From Candidatus Rifleibacteriota bacterium (GTDB lineage: Bacteria > Muiribacteriota > Ozemobacteria > Ozemobacterales > Ozemobacteraceae): a stretch of 64,000 nt of DNA. The stretch's first letter is position 1, and each line of letters starts with the position of its first letter. Where the stretch lies: contig JBNJGH010000005.1 in assembly GCA_051747585.1 (NCBI GenBank), positions 4,037 to 68,036 of the forward strand, given 5' to 3'. The notes beneath the pieces are model-generated. The model did no database searches. It was not told the origin of the DNA and saw only the letters and a list, made by a program, of their open reading frames with translations. The position numbers and the translations under genes were made by a program. This document shows positions 12,234 to 53,463 of this stretch, in pieces.

Positions 12234-12293
12234 GATTTAAGATAAAGCCGTAATATGGTGACAAACGAACTACTATGTGTTATTTTGTGTGTC

Positions 12294-13127
12294 ATGTATC
12301 CTATTCTATTTGAAATTGGTTCCATTCGTATCGGCTCCTACGGCGTATTACTGGCCGTTGCATTTTTAAGTGCCTTTTTATTGATCAATCGTGAATTCAA
12401 AAAAAATAACACCAACGTAGAGCTGGCCTGGGATCTTCATTTTCTTGCTATCTTTGGCGGCATGGTGGGTTCGAGGCTATTATTCATATTTGAAAATTTT
12501 TCGGCCTTCCTGGCTGACCCCCTGGCAATGATATTTTCCACCACCGGTTTTTCAGTTCTGGGTGGCTACGTTCTGGCGTTGGCTCTTTGTATTATCCGAG
12601 TTAAAAAATCAGGACAACCTTTTTTCAGAATCGCCGATTTATATGTTCCGGGAATGGCCATAGGTTATGCAATTGGCCGTCTTGGCTGCATCGCCGCTGG
12701 AGACGGCTGTTACGGTCTGCCCTGTAAATTGCCCTGGGCCATGAGTTTTCCCAAGGGAATCGTTTCTACCCTGAGCACGAAAAACCCCATGTTGGTAGAA
12801 CTTTACCAGAAAATGTTCCCCGGTGAAACTGTACCGACAGACATTGCAGTTCACCCGACCCCGCTATACGAGTCTATTTCTACAACTATTCTTTTAATAA
12901 TACTTCTTCTACCAATCTGGAACCCGGGCAATGGGCGCAGATTCGCTTTTTTCCTTTTATGGTTCAGCATTTCACGATTTCTGGTCGAGTTTATCAGGCT
13001 CAATCCCTTTGCCTACTGGGGTCTGTCGTCAAGTCAGGTTCTGTCGATAGTATTTTTCATGGCCGGAATTTTCATTATGCTTACCGCCTCAAAGCGCGAA
13101 AAATTAAATCCAGCGCCAAAAAGCTGA
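12294..13127 (+). CDS. lgt: Prolipoprotein diacylglyceryl transferase
   Basis: The N-terminal consensus MYPILFEIGSIRIGSYGVLLAVAF matches Lgt (P.LF.IG…YG), and the Lgt signature GRLGCIAAGDGCYG is present. The ORF track places an upstream ATG at 12255; 12294 fits Lgt N-termini better. Confidence 0.8.
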   Translation: MYPILFEIGSIRIGSYGVLLAVAFLSAFLLINREFKKNNTNVELAWDLHFLAIFGGMVGSRLLFIFENFSAFLADPLAMIFSTTGFSVLGGYVLALALCIIRVKKSGQPFFRIADLYVPGMAIGYAIGRLGCIAAGDGCYGLPCKLPWAMSFPKGIVSTLSTKNPMLVELYQKMFPGETVPTDIAVHPTPLYESISTTILLIILLLPIWNPGNGRRFAFFLLWFSISRFLVEFIRLNPFAYWGLSSSQVLSIVFFMAGIFIMLTASKREKLNPAPKS

Positions 13128-13235
13128 CTACAAAACAGTAACTTTTCATTTAAATTTATTTTTGCTCAAAACAATTCTCAGGTTTCTTGCATTGTAGTTA
13201 CACTTATCAAATTCGTTTTCATCAATTGAATTCAA

Positions 13236-13545
13236 TTAAACCACTGAGACCACCGAGGACACCGAGACGATTTTTTAATCTTTTTCAGCCATGGTTCCCA
13301 GCAACAGCAAGCCCTCAGAAAAGCACCAGTGTTTTTCTGAGGGCTCTGTGGTTATTTTCTTTGTGGCTTGGTGTGGGGTATATTACTGTCGGGAATCGAT
13401 ATCGTGATCGAAGAAAAAACACGACGACGATTACGACTACGAGCCCGAGCACGATTTAGATTGCTTCGTCGTTTCACTCCTCGCAATGACAGTTTGCAGG
13501 CTTTGTGTGAGGAATATTCTTTTTCTGAAACAAATTGATAATCGT
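13236..13545 (+). repeat. Copy A of a conserved modular intergenic element (modules M1 13236-13292, M2 hairpin 13304-13343, 188-bp insertion 13341-13528, M3 13520-13545)
   Basis: Near-identical to 53194-53357. The shared blocks are 'ttaaaccactgagRccaccgaggRcRc…gattttttaatctttttcagcca', 'cagcaagccYtcagaaaaRcacSagtgYttttctga' (an 11-3-11 near-palindrome hairpin) and 'ttttctgaaacRaRttgataRtc'. Confidence 0.6.
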
Positions 13546-13575
13546 TGGCCGGGTATTGCTTCAATATAGGGTTGA

Positions 13576-13604
13576 TTGATTTTTTGCGGTTATAGCTTTA
13601 TAAT
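13576..13604 (+). promoter_or_regulatory. Sigma-70-like promoter for glyQS (TTGATT-17-TATAAT)
   Basis: The −35 TTGATT (13576-13581) and −10 TATAAT (13599-13604) are separated by a 17-nt spacer, about 40 nt upstream of the glyQS ATG. GGAG lies at 13636-13639. Confidence 0.5.
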
Positions 13605-15029: not shown

Positions 15030-15854
15030 GTGAGTGACAAGATTTTGACCAGAGAACTTTATAGAGGCGACATGCTCGATGTCGCCTCTTTGCTTAGACC
15101 CGAAAGTTTCAGGCTGATTTATCTGGATCCTCCTTTTTTGACCGGGCGTGCAAGGATAGGGAGCAATGAAGATTACTCTTATGACGATAAATGGAATAGT
15201 CTACTCGATGACTATCTGCCCTGGTTGCAAACACGCATAAAAGCCCTTAGACCTTTATTGCTAAGTAATGGCAGCTTAATTCTTCATCTGGATTTCAGAG
15301 CAGCCCATTATGCCAAAATTATGCTCGATGAAATCTTTGGACGGGAATGCTTTATAAATGAAATAATCTGGCATTACACCGGCGGAGGCAGGTCGAGAAA
15401 CCGGTTTTCCTGCAAACACGACACTCTACTATGGTATAGCAATGGTCAAAAGCCACTGTTTAATATCGATGCCGCCCGAATGCCATACAAAAAAACTTCG
15501 GGTTACGCAAAAAATGGAATAAAATCTGCAAGTGGTCGAATATACAAACCGCATCCGGATGGGACTCCAGTAGACGATGTCTGGGACATTCCGATTATCA
15601 ACCCAATGTCAAAAGAGCGGGTTGGTTATCCGACCCAAAAACCGGTAAAATTGCTTAATCGAATTATTGCAACTCTTTCAGCTGAGAATGAACTGATTGG
15701 CGATTTTTGCTGCGGCAGCGGAACAACTTTATTTTGTGCCGAAAAAACAAATCGGCGCTGGATTGGCGTTGATCAATCAAAAGCTGCTATTGAGTGCACT
15801 TTAAGTAGATTTACAGAAGTTATCAGAAAGAAAATCTCAATCCAGAATCTGTAG
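15030..15854 (+). CDS. DNA methyltransferase, N4/N6 beta-class (motif IV before motif I); no cognate restriction gene adjacent
   Basis: GTG start 4 nt after the glyQS stop. The motif LIYLDPPF (DPPF, motif IV) lies near the N-terminus and DFCCGSGTTLF (the FxGxG AdoMet motif I) near the C-terminus, which is the beta-class order, as in YhdJ or CcrM. Confidence 0.85.
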   Translation: MSDKILTRELYRGDMLDVASLLRPESFRLIYLDPPFLTGRARIGSNEDYSYDDKWNSLLDDYLPWLQTRIKALRPLLLSNGSLILHLDFRAAHYAKIMLDEIFGRECFINEIIWHYTGGGRSRNRFSCKHDTLLWYSNGQKPLFNIDAARMPYKKTSGYAKNGIKSASGRIYKPHPDGTPVDDVWDIPIINPMSKERVGYPTQKPVKLLNRIIATLSAENELIGDFCCGSGTTLFCAEKTNRRWIGVDQSKAAIECTLSRFTEVIRKKISIQNL

Positions 15855-15856
15855 CT

Positions 15857-17305
15857 CTATTTTTTTAACTGGGGTCTGCGTTTTCTGACTCTGACCCTTA
15901 CTGCCTGTTCAACTACTTTATCTTCAAGGCCGGTTATTCCTTTTGCTTCAAAAATCACATCAAGACCGGGCTCGAGAGCTGCAATAGTTTCTTCGGTAAG
16001 AGCAGAAAAAGGAAAAAATATTTCCCGACCATCATGGGATCGAATTATGCCCACTTTTCTCTCTTCATCGAAACTTTCTATTTTGCCGGGCAAAGCATCA
16101 GAAACGCTGTGTTCATGTAACTTTTTGACCTGAACGGCGACAGGGCTGTTTTTGTCTTTAACAATTCCAAACTCAACCGGGTCGCCCTTGGTTAAATTTT
16201 CTTCTATCTCAGGTGTTAAAGCAGAAAAATGAAGCAGAACTTCAGGAAAGTCATCGCAGGAAAGCACTCCCATACCGGTTTCACGATTATACCATTTCAC
16301 CCAGCCTTCAACAAACGCATCTGGAGTGGGGTCATAAATAATTTCTTCCACTGTTCTACCAATATCTTTTCTGATTGAATCGATCTGGCCTATCAACTGT
16401 TTAACTTCAGGCTGTTCCGGGTTAATGGCAAGACAATCTTTAAGAGTTTCTACAGCCATTGCCAGCAGCCGACGTTTGAAATAAACCAGCCCCAGAAACA
16501 AAAGTGCCGGCGCATCTTTGGGCTTTATTCTCAAAGATTCAAGCAGATTGGCCTCGGCTTCTTCAAGCATATCAAGCTCATAAAGTATACTACCGATATC
16601 ACGACGAAACGCGGCATTATAAGGGAACCTCTTTATTAACTGACTATAAACGTCCAGTGCTTCATCAAACCACTTCATTTTATTATAAATCTCAGCCAGC
16701 TGCTGCATAGCATCGAGATTTTTCGGGTCTGCTGCAAGAATGTTTTTAAATTCTTCGGCAGCCTCGAGAAAATGAGTGTCGGCATTGTCGTCATCATGCT
16801 TAAGCCGGTATATCTCGCCAATGTTTTTATGAAAATGCGCCTTTCGCTGACCTGTTTCCAATCCCTGTCTGTAGTTCTTCAGGGCATTTTCTATATCGCC
16901 ACAAAGGCGGTAAGCCAGGCCAATGGTTTCATAATAATCTGGCTCTCCCGAGTCTTTATTTATGCACCATTTCAACTTTTTTATTGCTTCTGTGTATTTT
17001 TCTTCCACCAGATCATCAACAGCTTCATCGAACTTTTCTTTAATTTCTTCAAGAAATTCCGCCAGCTGCTCATCGTATTCTTCCCGTCTTTCGTCATCAG
17101 TAAGCAATTCAAAAGCATTTTTTAATTGCTTTAATTTGGGAATATTTGACAAAGGAGAATCAGTTGAAAAAAGCTGGGTATAATTTTTTTTGTAAGCCGC
17201 TGCTATTTCTTCGAGGCTTGCAAAATTAGGCACCCCGAATAGTTGATAAAGATTGCGCATTTGTTCTGGATTAATCCCAATCAGCCTGAATTTGTACAGT
17301 GCCAT
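15857..17305 (-). CDS. Multidomain protein: degenerate J-like domain (no HPD) + TPR repeats + two C-terminal cold-shock domains
   Basis: The N-terminus LYQLFGVPNFASLEEIAAAYKKNYTQLFSTD aligns to the J-domain helix II/III, but the HPD motif is replaced by STD. TPR-like repeats occupy the middle. The C-terminus has GWVKWYNRETGMGVLSCDDFPEVLLHFSAL and GKIESFDEERKVGIIRSHDGREIFFPFSAL, which I read as two cold-shock-domain (OB-fold) modules. Confidence 0.75.
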   Translation of the reverse strand: MALYKFRLIGINPEQMRNLYQLFGVPNFASLEEIAAAYKKNYTQLFSTDSPLSNIPKLKQLKNAFELLTDDERREEYDEQLAEFLEEIKEKFDEAVDDLVEEKYTEAIKKLKWCINKDSGEPDYYETIGLAYRLCGDIENALKNYRQGLETGQRKAHFHKNIGEIYRLKHDDDNADTHFLEAAEEFKNILAADPKNLDAMQQLAEIYNKMKWFDEALDVYSQLIKRFPYNAAFRRDIGSILYELDMLEEAEANLLESLRIKPKDAPALLFLGLVYFKRRLLAMAVETLKDCLAINPEQPEVKQLIGQIDSIRKDIGRTVEEIIYDPTPDAFVEGWVKWYNRETGMGVLSCDDFPEVLLHFSALTPEIEENLTKGDPVEFGIVKDKNSPVAVQVKKLHEHSVSDALPGKIESFDEERKVGIIRSHDGREIFFPFSALTEETIAALEPGLDVIFEAKGITGLEDKVVEQAVRVRVRKRRPQLKK

Positions 17306-17761
17306 TGTACTTTATTATCAGCTTTTACGCAACACCCGGCATAATAATCCCAACGATTATCCATTTAGTATTATTACGAGTTTTGGCTAGTTATTCTCCA
17401 TTAATCTGTTAAAAAATCTTTAAACTGTTTGCGCCGTTCGAAGTGTTTAATTGTGTAAGTGTCGGAGTATGCCATTTATATCAAAAACATAAACCGCAAA
17501 AACCGATTGTTTTTGCAGGATGCAATAAACACGACTATGTTCCACAGGAAGTGGAATCATAGGCGCGCATCGGTGTTGCGAGTGTTGTTTTTGCTAAATA
17601 AATGAGCATACGTAGATGTGAAACAATTAAACACTTTGATAAGGCAAAAAAAAGCGGAATTGTTCTTTAAGCCTGAATTAGAGCTAAATGGATAATCACT
17701 GGGCTCTGCAAACAATTTGTTGAAATAGGAACCTGTTATAGAGTAAATTGAGCTGCTGCAT

Positions 17762-18865
17762 ATGAAAATCGCGATAAAAACCATTGACAGATATATTTTA
17801 AAAGAGATGCTCGAACCATTTTTATTCGGCATGTCTTTCTTTGTTGCAATCTGGCTTATTGACCTGATGATGCAGCTGATCAATCTTATTTTTTCCAAAG
17901 GGGTACCTCTGTCGGTCGTTTCAATGTTTTTTATTTACAGCCTCCCCCCAACGCTGGTCATAAGCTTTCCAATGGCTTTATTGTTGTCAAATCTGGTAGC
18001 ATTTGGCAGGCTTTCTTCAGATTCGGAAATCACCGCAATGAAAGCCGGGGGGTATAGCTTTACCAGAATTGTAGCACCAGCTATTCTGGCCGGAATTTTT
18101 ATTACTTCGCTGACATTTTTGTTTAACGAAAAACTGGTGCCGATAGCTAACCAGAAATTCACCAATTTATTCAGACGGGAGGTAACCTTGAAAAGGCCTC
18201 TGCCGAAGGTTGCCGAGAACAGATTTTTTAATGCAGGTCCGGGGCGCAACTTTTTTGTAAGAAGATTTGACGAAAAAACCAGAGACATGTACGGAGTTGT
18301 AATGTACGAGGGGCAATCAAAAGGCTTTCCACGAGTTATAGAAGCAGAAAAGGCCCGGATAGAAGGCGGAATTTGTTATTTCTGGAAAGGACGAATATCT
18401 GACATTCATCGAAGTGGTGCAGATAATAACTACACATATTTTAACGAGATGGAATACCCTATTGACACCCATTACGTAAATCCCGACCACGTACCTGAAC
18501 AAAAAAACGCGAGAACCATGGGTGTTTGGAAGCTTTACAATTTTATTCAGGAATCAGAAAAAAAAGGCATATCTGAAAAGATTATTGTAGAGCACTGGAT
18601 AGAGCTCTGGTCGAAAACCGCGATACCTTTCGCAAGTCTTATTTTTGTTTTAATCGGCGCTCCATTAGGCTCGCAAACCACCAGATCCGGAACTGGAATC
18701 GGCATAGGAATGTCGGTGGTAATAATATTCTTCTATTATGTCCTTTTCGCTGCCGGCAAAGCTTTTGCCAAAGGCGCTGTTTTACCACCCTTCTGGGGGG
18801 TCTGGTTCCCCAACTTCTTTATCGGCATAATAGGACTCTGGCTGATATTCAAATCTAAAGCCTGA
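17762..18865 (+). CDS. LPS export ABC permease, LptF/LptG (YjgP/YjgQ) family
   Basis: 367 aa. The N-terminus MKIAIKTIDRYILKEMLEPFLFGMSFFVAIWLIDL (the RYI/LKE motif), six predicted TM segments and a periplasmic loop domain support the call. Confidence 0.85.
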   Translation: MKIAIKTIDRYILKEMLEPFLFGMSFFVAIWLIDLMMQLINLIFSKGVPLSVVSMFFIYSLPPTLVISFPMALLLSNLVAFGRLSSDSEITAMKAGGYSFTRIVAPAILAGIFITSLTFLFNEKLVPIANQKFTNLFRREVTLKRPLPKVAENRFFNAGPGRNFFVRRFDEKTRDMYGVVMYEGQSKGFPRVIEAEKARIEGGICYFWKGRISDIHRSGADNNYTYFNEMEYPIDTHYVNPDHVPEQKNARTMGVWKLYNFIQESEKKGISEKIIVEHWIELWSKTAIPFASLIFVLIGAPLGSQTTRSGTGIGIGMSVVIIFFYYVLFAAGKAFAKGAVLPPFWGVWFPNFFIGIIGLWLIFKSKA

Positions 18866-29361: not shown

Positions 29362-29431
29362 ACAAATCGATTTCCACCCAAAAAGAGTTGCATGTTAGTA
29401 TAAAGTGTGCTAATTTCTCAAGGTATAGAAT

Positions 29432-29503
29432 TGGGGTGTCGCCAAGCGGTAAGGCACCGGGTTTTGGGTCCGGCATTCGCAGGTTCGAATCCTGCCACCC
29501 CAG
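29432..29503 (+). tRNA. tRNA-Gln (anticodon UUG)
   Basis: I folded the cloverleaf by hand. The acceptor stem is TGGGGTG/CACCCCA with a U1-A72 pair, as in bacterial tRNA-Gln. The D arm is GCCAAGCGGTAAGGC, the anticodon stem-loop is CCGGG-TTTTGGG-TCCGG (anticodon TTG) and the T arm is GCAGGTTCGAATCCTGC. The discriminator is G and CCA is not encoded. It closely matches E. coli tRNA-Gln. Confidence 0.9.
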
Positions 29504-29506
29504 GTC

Positions 29507-29539
29507 AAAAAAACCTGCTTTCAAGCAGGTTTTTTTTAT
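29507..29539 (+). terminator. Rho-independent terminator after tRNA-Gln (A-tract/hairpin/T-tract, potentially bidirectional)
   Basis: The sequence aaaaaaaCCTGCTTtcaaGCAGGttttttttt forms a perfect 7-bp GC-rich stem flanked by an A7 run upstream and a T9 run downstream. Confidence 0.8.
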
Positions 29540-29674
29540 TTCTTTGGGTTGGGTGGAGGCAATAATTATCTGAAACGAAGTGATAATCTTTGTCTAAAAA
29601 TTGCTGAAGGTAATTCTGTAAAACAACGCGCAAGTTGTGTATAATGTTGAAGACAAATCTTGCGGAGGTTTGAG

Positions 29675-51997: not shown

Positions 51998-52132
51998 ATG
52001 CTTTGCCCACAATGCAGCGCATCAATGGTCAGAAAATCTCACAACGGACGACAATCACCTTATTTCACCCTCAACTGCAATCACTGCAAATTTGTTATTT
52101 TCTATCGCGGACAATTCAATAACGAAGAATAA
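51998..52132 (+). CDS. Small (44 aa) C4 zinc-ribbon protein
   Basis: AAGGAGG lies 7 nt upstream of the ATG at 51998. The sequence MLCPQCSASMVRKSHNGRQSPYFTLNCNHCKF carries CxxC…CxxC. The ORF track's longer ORF from 51929 lacks an RBS. Confidence 0.5.
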   Translation: MLCPQCSASMVRKSHNGRQSPYFTLNCNHCKFVIFYRGQFNNEE

Positions 52133-52591
52133 TTTAACTTAAAGTCATAATAGAACAGAATAAGAGTTAAATCAACCTTAATAAGGCTCTATCGGTAGCT
52201 ATAAAAGTAATTTCCCCGGCTTTTAAACTTGATTATATGCTAGAAATGAGCAAACAGGGCCTTATAAAATGACTGCGCACCCACCCTCTATTCGTACTGG
52301 CTAATTTTTAAGGGAGCCTGAAAAAACAAAGCGGCAGCATTCGCCACCGTTCAAAGCCTGAAAATTCTGCTATCTTTTTCAATCATTCACGAATTATTAT
52401 CTGAGCATTTTCCAGCCGGATTCCCACCATATACGGCTACTAGTCCTACAAACCGGTTGGGTTCTCGTAGTTAAATTCTTACGAGCTGAAACGGCAAGGT
52501 TACCCTTAACTTGAATATGCTCTTCGTTTTCCAGATTTTTATTTCTACGATAGTTTAAATACGAGTTCGAAAACATCTCGTGCTTCAACAT

Positions 52592-52858
52592 TTATCTGCT
52601 CCTGACTCCGTTTCGATGCTGACCATTGCAGATACAATCGAGTTCAGTTTCAAGTTCACGCAATTTGCGGTCTATTACATTCAAGCGATCTATTTCTTCA
52701 CGGCATTTCTCTGAAATTTCAACTTCTACGGATTTTTCTTCTTTTCGCAAAGCCTCGATTGAATTCTGGATAAGCTTAACTTTCAGCCTCTCCTCATTAT
52801 CGAGCTGAACCTTAGTTGCTGGCTCTTTTGATTTAAATAGAGGAACTAAAACGCCCAT
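52592..52858 (-). CDS. Small coiled-coil protein (88 aa, hypothetical)
   Basis: GGAGG lies 6 nt upstream of the ATG at 52856-52858 on the minus strand. The protein is a heptad-rich charged helix (…LRKEEKSVEVEISEKCREEIDRLNVIDRKLRELETELD…). Confidence 0.45.
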   Translation of the reverse strand: MGVLVPLFKSKEPATKVQLDNEERLKVKLIQNSIEALRKEEKSVEVEISEKCREEIDRLNVIDRKLRELETELDCICNGQHRNGVRSR

Positions 52859-53193
52859 GTACAGCCTCCAAATAATTTATATATGCCGGATTTTTTTGTC
52901 CGCCATCACTTACTATCGGCATGCAGTAAACTTAAATTTAATCCTTGTTTGCCCCTGCTGTTTGTCGCACTGCCGGGATATTCATGGCTGAATACCTTCC
53001 TTTGCTCCAACAACACATCAAACAAAGCCTTTAAGCCTCAAAGCTAACAAAGAAGAGAATTAAATAATCGAAAAGCCTTTCCCGATCGTGATACCGAATT
53101 GCGATGACTGCTCGGGCAGCAATTCTCGGTCAATTATTATTTGCTATTTACAAAACAGTTCTGGTTTTATTTCTTTCTGTCAAATATAGAATT

Positions 53194-53357
53194 TAAACCA
53201 CTGAGGCCACCGAGGGCGCAGAGTTGATTTTTTAATCTTTTTCAGCCAGGATTTTGTCCTGTGGACAAATAGCCGGCGGTTTCATTGCCCGGCTTTTCCT
53301 TCTTCAGCAAGCCTTCAGAAAAACACGAGTGCTTTTCTGAAACGAGTTGATAGTCTC
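53194..53357 (+). repeat. Copy B of the conserved modular intergenic element (M1 53194-53248, variable spacer with two small hairpins, M2/M3 53304-53357)
   Basis: This copy has the same blocks as 13236-13545 in the same order and orientation. M2 and M3 are contiguous here. It ends ~105 nt upstream of the phoH2 ATG. Confidence 0.6.
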
Positions 53358-53463
53358 TCACCGAGAATTACTACTGCTCGGGTGTAAGTTTGACAGAAAG
53401 TTTAGCTCTATGCTAATTTTGGACTGATTTATATTAATTTTTTTTTAGAATAGGAAACTTTAG

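Follow-up and report, generated by a model that had tools for sequence, protein, structure and literature searches.

A MITE-like repeat family upstream of glyQS and phoH in uncultured Rifleibacteriota

Background

The element described here resembles, in one respect or another, several kinds of small bacterial repeats. With the REP and REPIN sequences mobilised by RAYT transposases it shares palindromic, hairpin-forming units which are intergenic and dispersed through the genome; REPINs are inverted doublets of a short REP palindrome. Promoter-proximal MITEs of the Correia type are nearest in behaviour and BOX elements nearest in their modular look. MITEs are small (typically <500 bp) and carry no transposase gene, and the direct repeats flanking them decay with age (PMC10969869). 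The Correia elements of Neisseria and the Chunjie elements of Geobacter are like our element in a length below 500 bp, in terminal inverted repeats (TIRs) without a transposase gene, in an intergenic site just upstream of genes, in a stable fold and in the occurrence of partial next to full copies, and Correia elements are reported to have undergone inversion of internal parts (PMC10969869, section 4.1). In Streptococcus pneumoniae, BOX elements are built of boxA, boxB and boxC modules; as here, they are modular mosaics of small repeats in which the number and arrangement of modules vary, they are restricted to a lineage, and they cluster or insert beside one another (PMC3049150). Putative mobile promoters (PMPs) are defined by more than 50 nt at at least 80% identity within positions -150 to -50 of non-homologous coding sequences (Matus-Garcia et al. 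2012, PMC3488235), and homologous upstream DNA before non-homologous genes is found in our case, too.

The window analysed in this study is a stretch of 64,000 nucleotides from a member of the Rifleibacteriota, a candidate phylum for which metagenomes are the only source. The proteins encoded at the two loci show 100% identity to those of a Candidatus Rifleibacteriota MAG (GenBank proteins MGM0598437.1 and MGM0598470.1). An original prediction, made from the letters of the window, had drawn attention to three blocks, M1, M2 and M3, which occur upstream of glyQS (copy A) and again upstream of a PIN-PhoH gene, here called phoH (copy B). Three readings had been offered, a MITE-like repeat, a small RNA (sRNA) gene family and a shared upstream regulatory region. 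Here we compare both copies with each other and with the orthologous loci of related genomes, and conclude that they probably belong to a small non-coding DNA element, a MITE, for which a transposase would be supplied in trans from another locus.

Results

The blocks M1, M2 and M3 stand in the same order and orientation at 13236-13545 and 53193-53357, as had been predicted, and when both regions are read and aligned the agreement is far above chance. M1 (13236-13296 and 53193-53253) shows 87% identity over 61 nt and ranks first among the direct repeats of the window, with 0 chance matches expected for either of its sub-blocks; the longest identical run has 23 nt (13269-13291), one less than first counted. 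M2 (CAGCAAGCCYTCAGAAAARCACSAGTGYTTTTCTGA) is identical at 32 of 36 positions. Its palindrome, described before as 11-3-11, has arms of 17 nt in copy A and of 13 nt in copy B with a loop of 2 nt in each, and is present only twice in the 64 kb. For M3, 20 of 23 positions agree, where 0.01 such matches would be expected by chance. Homology also continues leftward beyond M1 and reaches TACAAAACAGT at 13129 and 53149. The spacing of M2 and M3 differs between the copies: M3 starts within the 3' arm of M2 in copy B, whereas in copy A it lies 188 nt 3' of M2, and copy B is without these 188 nt, which in copy A are found between two direct repeats TTTTTCTGA. Altogether the family is represented in the 64 kb by the two M1-M2 copies, by a further copy C and by one relic. 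In a gene-free stretch of 457 nt between divergent genes (17305-17762) no member of the repeat family was detected.

Copy B is a complete MITE-like element of 257 bp on the plus strand (53117-53373), bounded by TIRs and by a target site duplication (TSD). The two copies of the TSD, the 9 bp CTGCTCGGG (53108-53116 and 53374-53382), form a perfect direct repeat which directly abuts the TIRs. These, CAGCAATTCTCGGT on the left (53117-53130) and ACCGAGAATTACTA on the right (53360-53373), are complementary at 12 of 14 positions and extend imperfectly to about 50 nt. A systematic search found such a configuration of TSD and TIR once in the window, namely at copy B, and in 0 of 200 shuffles. From left to right, and all on the plus strand, the element consists of a left end module (53117-53174, including TTTACAAAAC), of M1 (three 9-mers of the form RCCACYGAG, then GATTTTTTAATCTTTTTCAGCCA), of two small hairpins, of M2 (53305-53341, with arms at 53314-53326 and 53329-53341, the 3' arm doubling as the start of M3), and of M3 together with the right terminal repeat (53332-53373). 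The two hairpins, which had already been suspected in the spacer between M1 and M2, could be seen as the palindromes TTTGTCC-TGT-GGACAAA and AGCCGGCGG...CCCGGCT in a stretch specific to copy B (53252-53295). As DNA, the element folds with -33.1 kcal/mol (z = -3.35) and with its termini paired. Its longest ORF has 39 aa, and there is no transposase gene inside.

The first ~60 nt of copy B, corresponding to the left end module, are homologous to the starts of two elements in other genomes, one upstream of glyQS in the sister species (L032 9664-9719) and one upstream of secG in an 88% relative (L002 4404-4346), with E-values of 1e-12 to 1e-14 in profile searches. The left-end profile also matches right ends in inverted orientation, with E = 0.011 in the window and E = 0.057 in the sister phoH locus (L037). 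Since these inverted hits fall on the M3 regions, the terminal repeats must be long and imperfect, and M3 represents the inner part of the right repeat.

Copy B is located between a pair of small genes on the minus strand (52397-52858) and the PIN-PhoH gene (53464-), and its insertion site precedes the phoH -35 hexamer by 7 nt. When the 257-bp element and one copy of the TSD are removed in silico, ACCGAATTGCGATGACTGCTCGGG is joined to TGTAAGTTTGACAGAAAG, and this join is colinear with the DNA upstream of phoH in the sister species (L037) and in a third lineage (L041), both of which have the phoH site without the element. Apart from the 266 bp gained with copy B, the window and these relatives are colinear at this site. 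The phoH promoter TTGACA...TAATTT (53391-53419, plus strand), which appears as plausible as originally claimed, is intact, lies outside copy B and its TSD and is kept in relatives without the element. Only 2-4 nt away from the insertion ends an older, degenerate relic of the family (52942-53106, terminating in ACCGAATTGC), which has a weak inverted similarity to the L037 unit (reached by 4 of 500 shuffles) and is colinear with the right-end motif of L037 and L041. A 12-nt perfect inverted repeat connects the interior of the element with the -35 region of phoH (CTTTCTGTCAAA, 53173-53184, and TTTGACAGAAAG, 53389-53400) and places a TTGACA on the minus strand. The thought that CTTTCTGTCAAA represents the phoH -35 region in inverted form was given up, as its counterpart in the canonical elements is CGCCTTGTCAAAG, and the inverted repeat is probably a coincidence.

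Copy A (13128-13563, plus strand) is a rearranged member which takes up the intergenic space from lgt (12255-13127) to glyQS (13647-). On the left it is cut off at the stop codon of lgt, and no TSD was found around it. Its similarity to the L032 element was reached in 0 of 500 shuffles. The M2 of copy A (13305-13345, arms at 13310-13326 and 13329-13345) is directly followed by a copy of a 9-mer array in direct orientation, CTCTGTGG..TTCTTTGTGGCTTGGTGTGGGG (13345-13380), so that this part looks like an inverted duplication around M2. Further downstream, a second partial 9-mer array, M3 (13520-13545) and a degenerate right terminal repeat GCCGGGTATTGC follow (13494-13562, E 1.7e-10), all on the plus strand; this portion is orthologous to the glyQS upstream regions L001, L003, L032 and L036. 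The predicted sigma-70-like promoter of glyQS is plausible, with the sequence TTGATT-17-TATAAT (13576-13604, plus strand), and is kept in L001, L003, L032 and L042. For copy A there are two possible origins: the variant may have inserted here at an earlier time, or gene conversion may have brought the variant core into an element already resident. A further module, GAYGACGATTACGA...GAGCACGA, was seen at 13419-13452, one frame of which reads DDDYDYEPEHD. It is also present 5' of glyQS in the 88% and 85% relatives (L003 1310-1350; L005 9730-9745 and 9822-9845, one of the two in L005 being inverted), and the sister species is without it.

Copy C (29541-29612, plus strand, E 2e-9) is a truncated member of the canonical type, consisting of the 9-mer array and M3. 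It lies between the only tRNA gene of the window, tRNA-Gln at 29431, and a nucleotidyltransferase gene at 29660, and contains a weaker, third M3 (29565-29588). Past the tRNA-Gln(TTG) (29431-29540 region) comes a strong hairpin resembling a terminator, AAAAAACCTGCTTTCAAGCAGGTTTTTTTT, and copy C adjoins it directly.

For the comparison with other genomes, orthologous loci were gathered via relatives of GlyRS and PhoH and the members of their 90% clusters. The sister species (94.8% identity in GlyRS, 98.6% in PhoH) is syntenic at both sites, and M1 and M2 are absent from both of its orthologous sites, upstream of glyQS and of phoH. Profile searches gave no match to M1 or M2 in ~40 loci of relatives, comprising ~340 kb. 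The lgt-glyQS spacer has 347 nt in the sister species versus 520 nt in the window, and the spacer upstream of phoH 304 nt versus 606 nt. In the third lineage (ENA ERZ23499083), which like the sister species stands at ~95% (GlyRS) and ~98% (PhoH) identity, is syntenic at both loci and has no M1 or M2, these spacers measure 110 nt (glyQS) and 184 nt (phoH). There, the element was either largely deleted twice or was never complete. At L042 1466-1576 and at L041 9817-10001 only the last ~25-35 nt of the right end and the promoter are kept. The absence of M1-M2 in close relatives speaks against both a conserved functional RNA and an operator and indicates a recent gain in the lineage of the window.

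M3 has a wider distribution and was found in relatives upstream of glyQS (L001, L003, L032, L036), phoH (L037) and secG (L002). In its canonical form it is the 3' part of a repeat which consists of a 9-nt-periodic array (cTTTGYGnc...) followed by TTTTCTGAAAGCAACTGATNGTCGC...ACCGAGAATTGC, and a canonical member has the layout left end, 9-mer array, M3 and right end. The similarity of the whole of copy B to the elements at glyQS (L032) and secG (L002) was reached in 0 of 500 shuffles. By reading of the sequence, the TIRs of the L002 element match at 11 of 14 positions; no TSD was found at the L002 or the L032 element. For both copies, M1 in direct orientation matches the L037 unit only at background level. 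Its reverse complement aligns to L037 9798-9870, the segment upstream of M3 made up of ATGGCTGAAGAAGATT and the 9-mer array, with a score of 34 (shuffles 17.4 +/- 3.0, reached in 0 of 500). Therefore, M1 is the internal array in inverted orientation.

Four independent assemblies (L001, L002, L004 and L036) have contigs which start inside M3 or the 9-mer array, as is expected for a sequence present in multiple copies. Scans of genome, metagenome and viral contigs with exact patterns of M1a, M1b and M3 returned nothing, or single chance matches of pattern length in unrelated taxa; these collections evidently did not include the genome of the window or the samples of its relatives. A BLAST search of phages and plasmids returned nothing relevant. 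Neither the window nor the gathered loci of relatives contain a transposase gene, and none with matching ends (CAGYAATTCTCGGT) was found.

The blocks do not belong to a known RNA family, which agrees with the original prediction: for both copies, Rfam 15 gave no match at the gathering threshold and only noise at E <= 10. A promoter and terminator scan detected the promoter of glyQS, detected none upstream of M1, and called no intrinsic terminator (a GC-rich hairpin with a U tract directly behind it) at M2 of either copy. In copy A, a U-rich run begins ~7 nt past the M2 stem, and copy B has none. Copy A folds better than shuffled sequences on both strands (z = -5.0 and -3.8); the RNA fold of copy B is unexceptional (z = -1.1). 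No conserved RNA structure was found in M3 (-3.3 kcal/mol), and a check for covariation found none. The sole asymmetric position of the M2 stem is a G-U pair which lies on opposite strands in copies A and B, and hence there is no strand-consistent signal. As to coding capacity, minus-strand ORFs of 70 and 39 aa have DYQxxSEK in common, and a JGI gene call of 61 aa exists on the minus strand of L032. A 1-nt indel inside M3 between the near-identical L001 and L032 argues against coding. We therefore rejected the minus-strand small ORF (DYQxxSEK...PHTKPQ), its frames being different and interrupted by this indel among close relatives. Inspection of M3 by eye for an IHF site, a Fur box or a Pho-box-like direct repeat yielded partial matches only.

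In every member found, at glyQS, at phoH (the older and the younger insertion) and at secG, and in all three lineages, the right end faces the gene. The right terminal repeat ends 14-16 nt before the -35 hexamer, namely 16 nt at 5 of 6 sites and 14 nt in copy A; in copy B these 16 nt are target DNA. The distances at which M1 and M2 precede the -35 hexamer are ~330 and ~260 nt in copy A versus ~165 and ~65 nt in copy B. We considered the promoter as a part of the element and rejected this, since the DNA downstream of M3 is not significantly similar at most loci. The exception is glyQS of L042 compared with phoH of L037, where similarity does not stop at the terminal repeat and runs on to the -35 hexamer (6 of 1000 shuffles), which a simple element boundary does not explain.

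Discussion

Among the three readings originally offered, the MITE-like one is borne out, and those of an sRNA family and of a shared upstream regulatory region are not. Copy B has TIRs, a perfect 9-bp TSD, a size below 500 bp without a transposase gene and the ability to form a stable stem-loop when single-stranded. Element-free sites exist in the closest relatives (L037 and L041), and family members occur at three genes and in three lineages. The TSD is confined to copy B, and its lack at copy A and at the elements of L002 and L032 is consistent with these being older copies, since direct repeats decay with age. All this makes a MITE family of known kind the probable explanation; the family itself is new and is specific to one lineage of uncultured Rifleibacteriota.

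Copy B would accordingly be a young insertion during which 9 bp of the target (CTGCTCGGG) were duplicated. A putative transposase, acting in trans, would bind the end regions, and M3, the inner right end, may be its presumed binding region. As for the order of events, a variant with an inverted internal 9-mer array (M1) seems to have arisen in the lineage of the window, with the M2 palindrome at the junction to M3. Copy A may be an older, rearranged element with this variant core, obtained through a separate insertion or through gene conversion. At phoH, the insertion would merely have pushed the upstream DNA 266 bp away from the promoter; an effect on the transcription of glyQS or phoH may at most be supposed, and we predict no function for M1-M2.

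Could the repeats have arisen entirely without transposition, by ectopic recombination or gene conversion and local inverted duplications between resident promoter-upstream repeats, that is, by concerted evolution of regulatory DNA already in place? Copy A lies in the spacer in which the sister species has its canonical element and has only the internal core in common with copy B, the nested palindromes at the junctions and the 188-nt difference bounded by TTTTTCTGA resemble products of recombination, and with only two copies containing M1-M2 the core of copy A possibly came from gene conversion. Moreover, the regions upstream of glyQS and phoH in the sister species share 74 nt at 85% identity. 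Nevertheless, a perfect 9-bp direct duplication exactly abutting inverted termini is not a product of gene conversion, and copy B is an addition of 266 bp to a site otherwise colinear with relatives, so that we regard this explanation as unlikely. The 40 kb between the two copies, which are direct repeats in the same orientation, might alternatively be taken for an island flanked by attL and attR; this interval is core genome, however, and syntenic in the sister species which is without the repeats. A small basic protein (DYQ[LF][VL]SEK...) encoded on the minus strand might be read from the shared DYQxxSEK of the two ORFs and the 61-aa call in L032, but the ORFs agree neither in frame nor in length, the strand chosen varies between gene callers, and near-identical relatives differ by the 1-nt indel inside M3. 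For the island and the small protein we see next to no likelihood.

An sRNA gene family or a cis-acting RNA with its own promoter, ending at the M2 hairpin, would account for the strength of this hairpin, for the folding of copy A on both strands and for the U-rich stretch after its M2. Yet with neither an Rfam match at E <= 10 nor a promoter upstream of M1 nor a terminator at M2, with a copy B that lacks the U tract and has an unexceptional fold, with no strand-consistent stem signal and with orthologous sites in the closest relatives that are devoid of M1-M2 at both loci, such an RNA is highly improbable. Only slightly better is the case for M2 or M3 as the operator of a dimeric transcription factor which co-regulates glyQS and phoH, a very unlikely reading in our view. 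It could draw on the near-perfect palindrome of M2, on direct half-sites CTGAAA-N4/5-TGATA about one helical turn apart that can be read in M3, and on the constant distance of 16 nt between the right terminal repeat and the -35 hexamer at glyQS, phoH and secG. However, the distance of M2 from the -35 hexamer varies by some two hundred nucleotides between copies A and B, M1 and M2 are missing in relatives which have the same promoters, the third lineage retains the promoters of both genes although most of M3 is gone there, and the left end module mirrors M3, as is expected of transposon ends. By these results a false lead is removed, as the repeats are not a new riboswitch, sRNA or operator.

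A different matter, and the one notable trait of an otherwise ordinary genomic parasite, is the placement of the family, since all members found are promoter-proximal and point one way, as a regulatory module would. Transposition aimed at promoter-upstream DNA or at promoters bound by RNA polymerase, or else a domestication of M3 as a portable regulatory module of housekeeping promoters, is possible, though we consider it rather doubtful. The constant spacing to the promoter could result from insertion beside a resident end, from promoter-directed targeting or from selection for a regulatory module. The strict, one-orientation placement next to promoters makes the probable MITE family a possible case of promoter-targeted insertion or regulatory co-option.

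Compared with the systems introduced above, no sequence similarity to described MITEs was found (ISfinder was outside this comparison). As in Correia and Chunjie elements, the TSD is seen in the young copy only. It has 9 bp here, whereas Correia elements duplicate TA; a TSD of 9 bp is typical of IS1, IS4, IS256 and ISAs1-type elements. As a further difference, no promoter was found inside our element, and the adjoining promoters are native. BOX elements are not known to have a clear TSD, whereas one copy here has a textbook combination of TIR and TSD; a sequence relationship does not exist. REPINs are likewise not known to have a TIR or TSD, in contrast to copy B, and the M2 palindrome is found no more than twice in 64 kb. 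In PMP terms, the 74 nt at 85% identity between glyQS and phoH of the sister species (-150 to -50) exceed the thresholds, and the 20 nt at 90% in the window fall short of them; different from PMPs, the -35 and -10 hexamers lie outside the young element.

This previously undescribed MITE family of the Rifleibacteriota has apparently been active recently enough to differ between sister species, and as a repeat it fragments metagenome assemblies at glyQS in several samples.

Some observations concern the neighbouring genes. Right after glyQS follows a gene for an N6/N4 DNA methyltransferase (15030-15854), the stop codon of the one overlapping or adjoining the start codon of the other; all relatives examined share this arrangement, and no restriction partner was seen nearby. 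The minus-strand gene pair beside copy B encodes proteins of 88 aa and 64 aa in a toxin-antitoxin-like layout, has no Pfam match and is kept in the sister species (L037 9239-9697). The ORF next to it on the plus strand (51998-52132) has 44 aa, is rich in Cys and zinc-ribbon-like, and is preceded by a good Shine-Dalgarno sequence.
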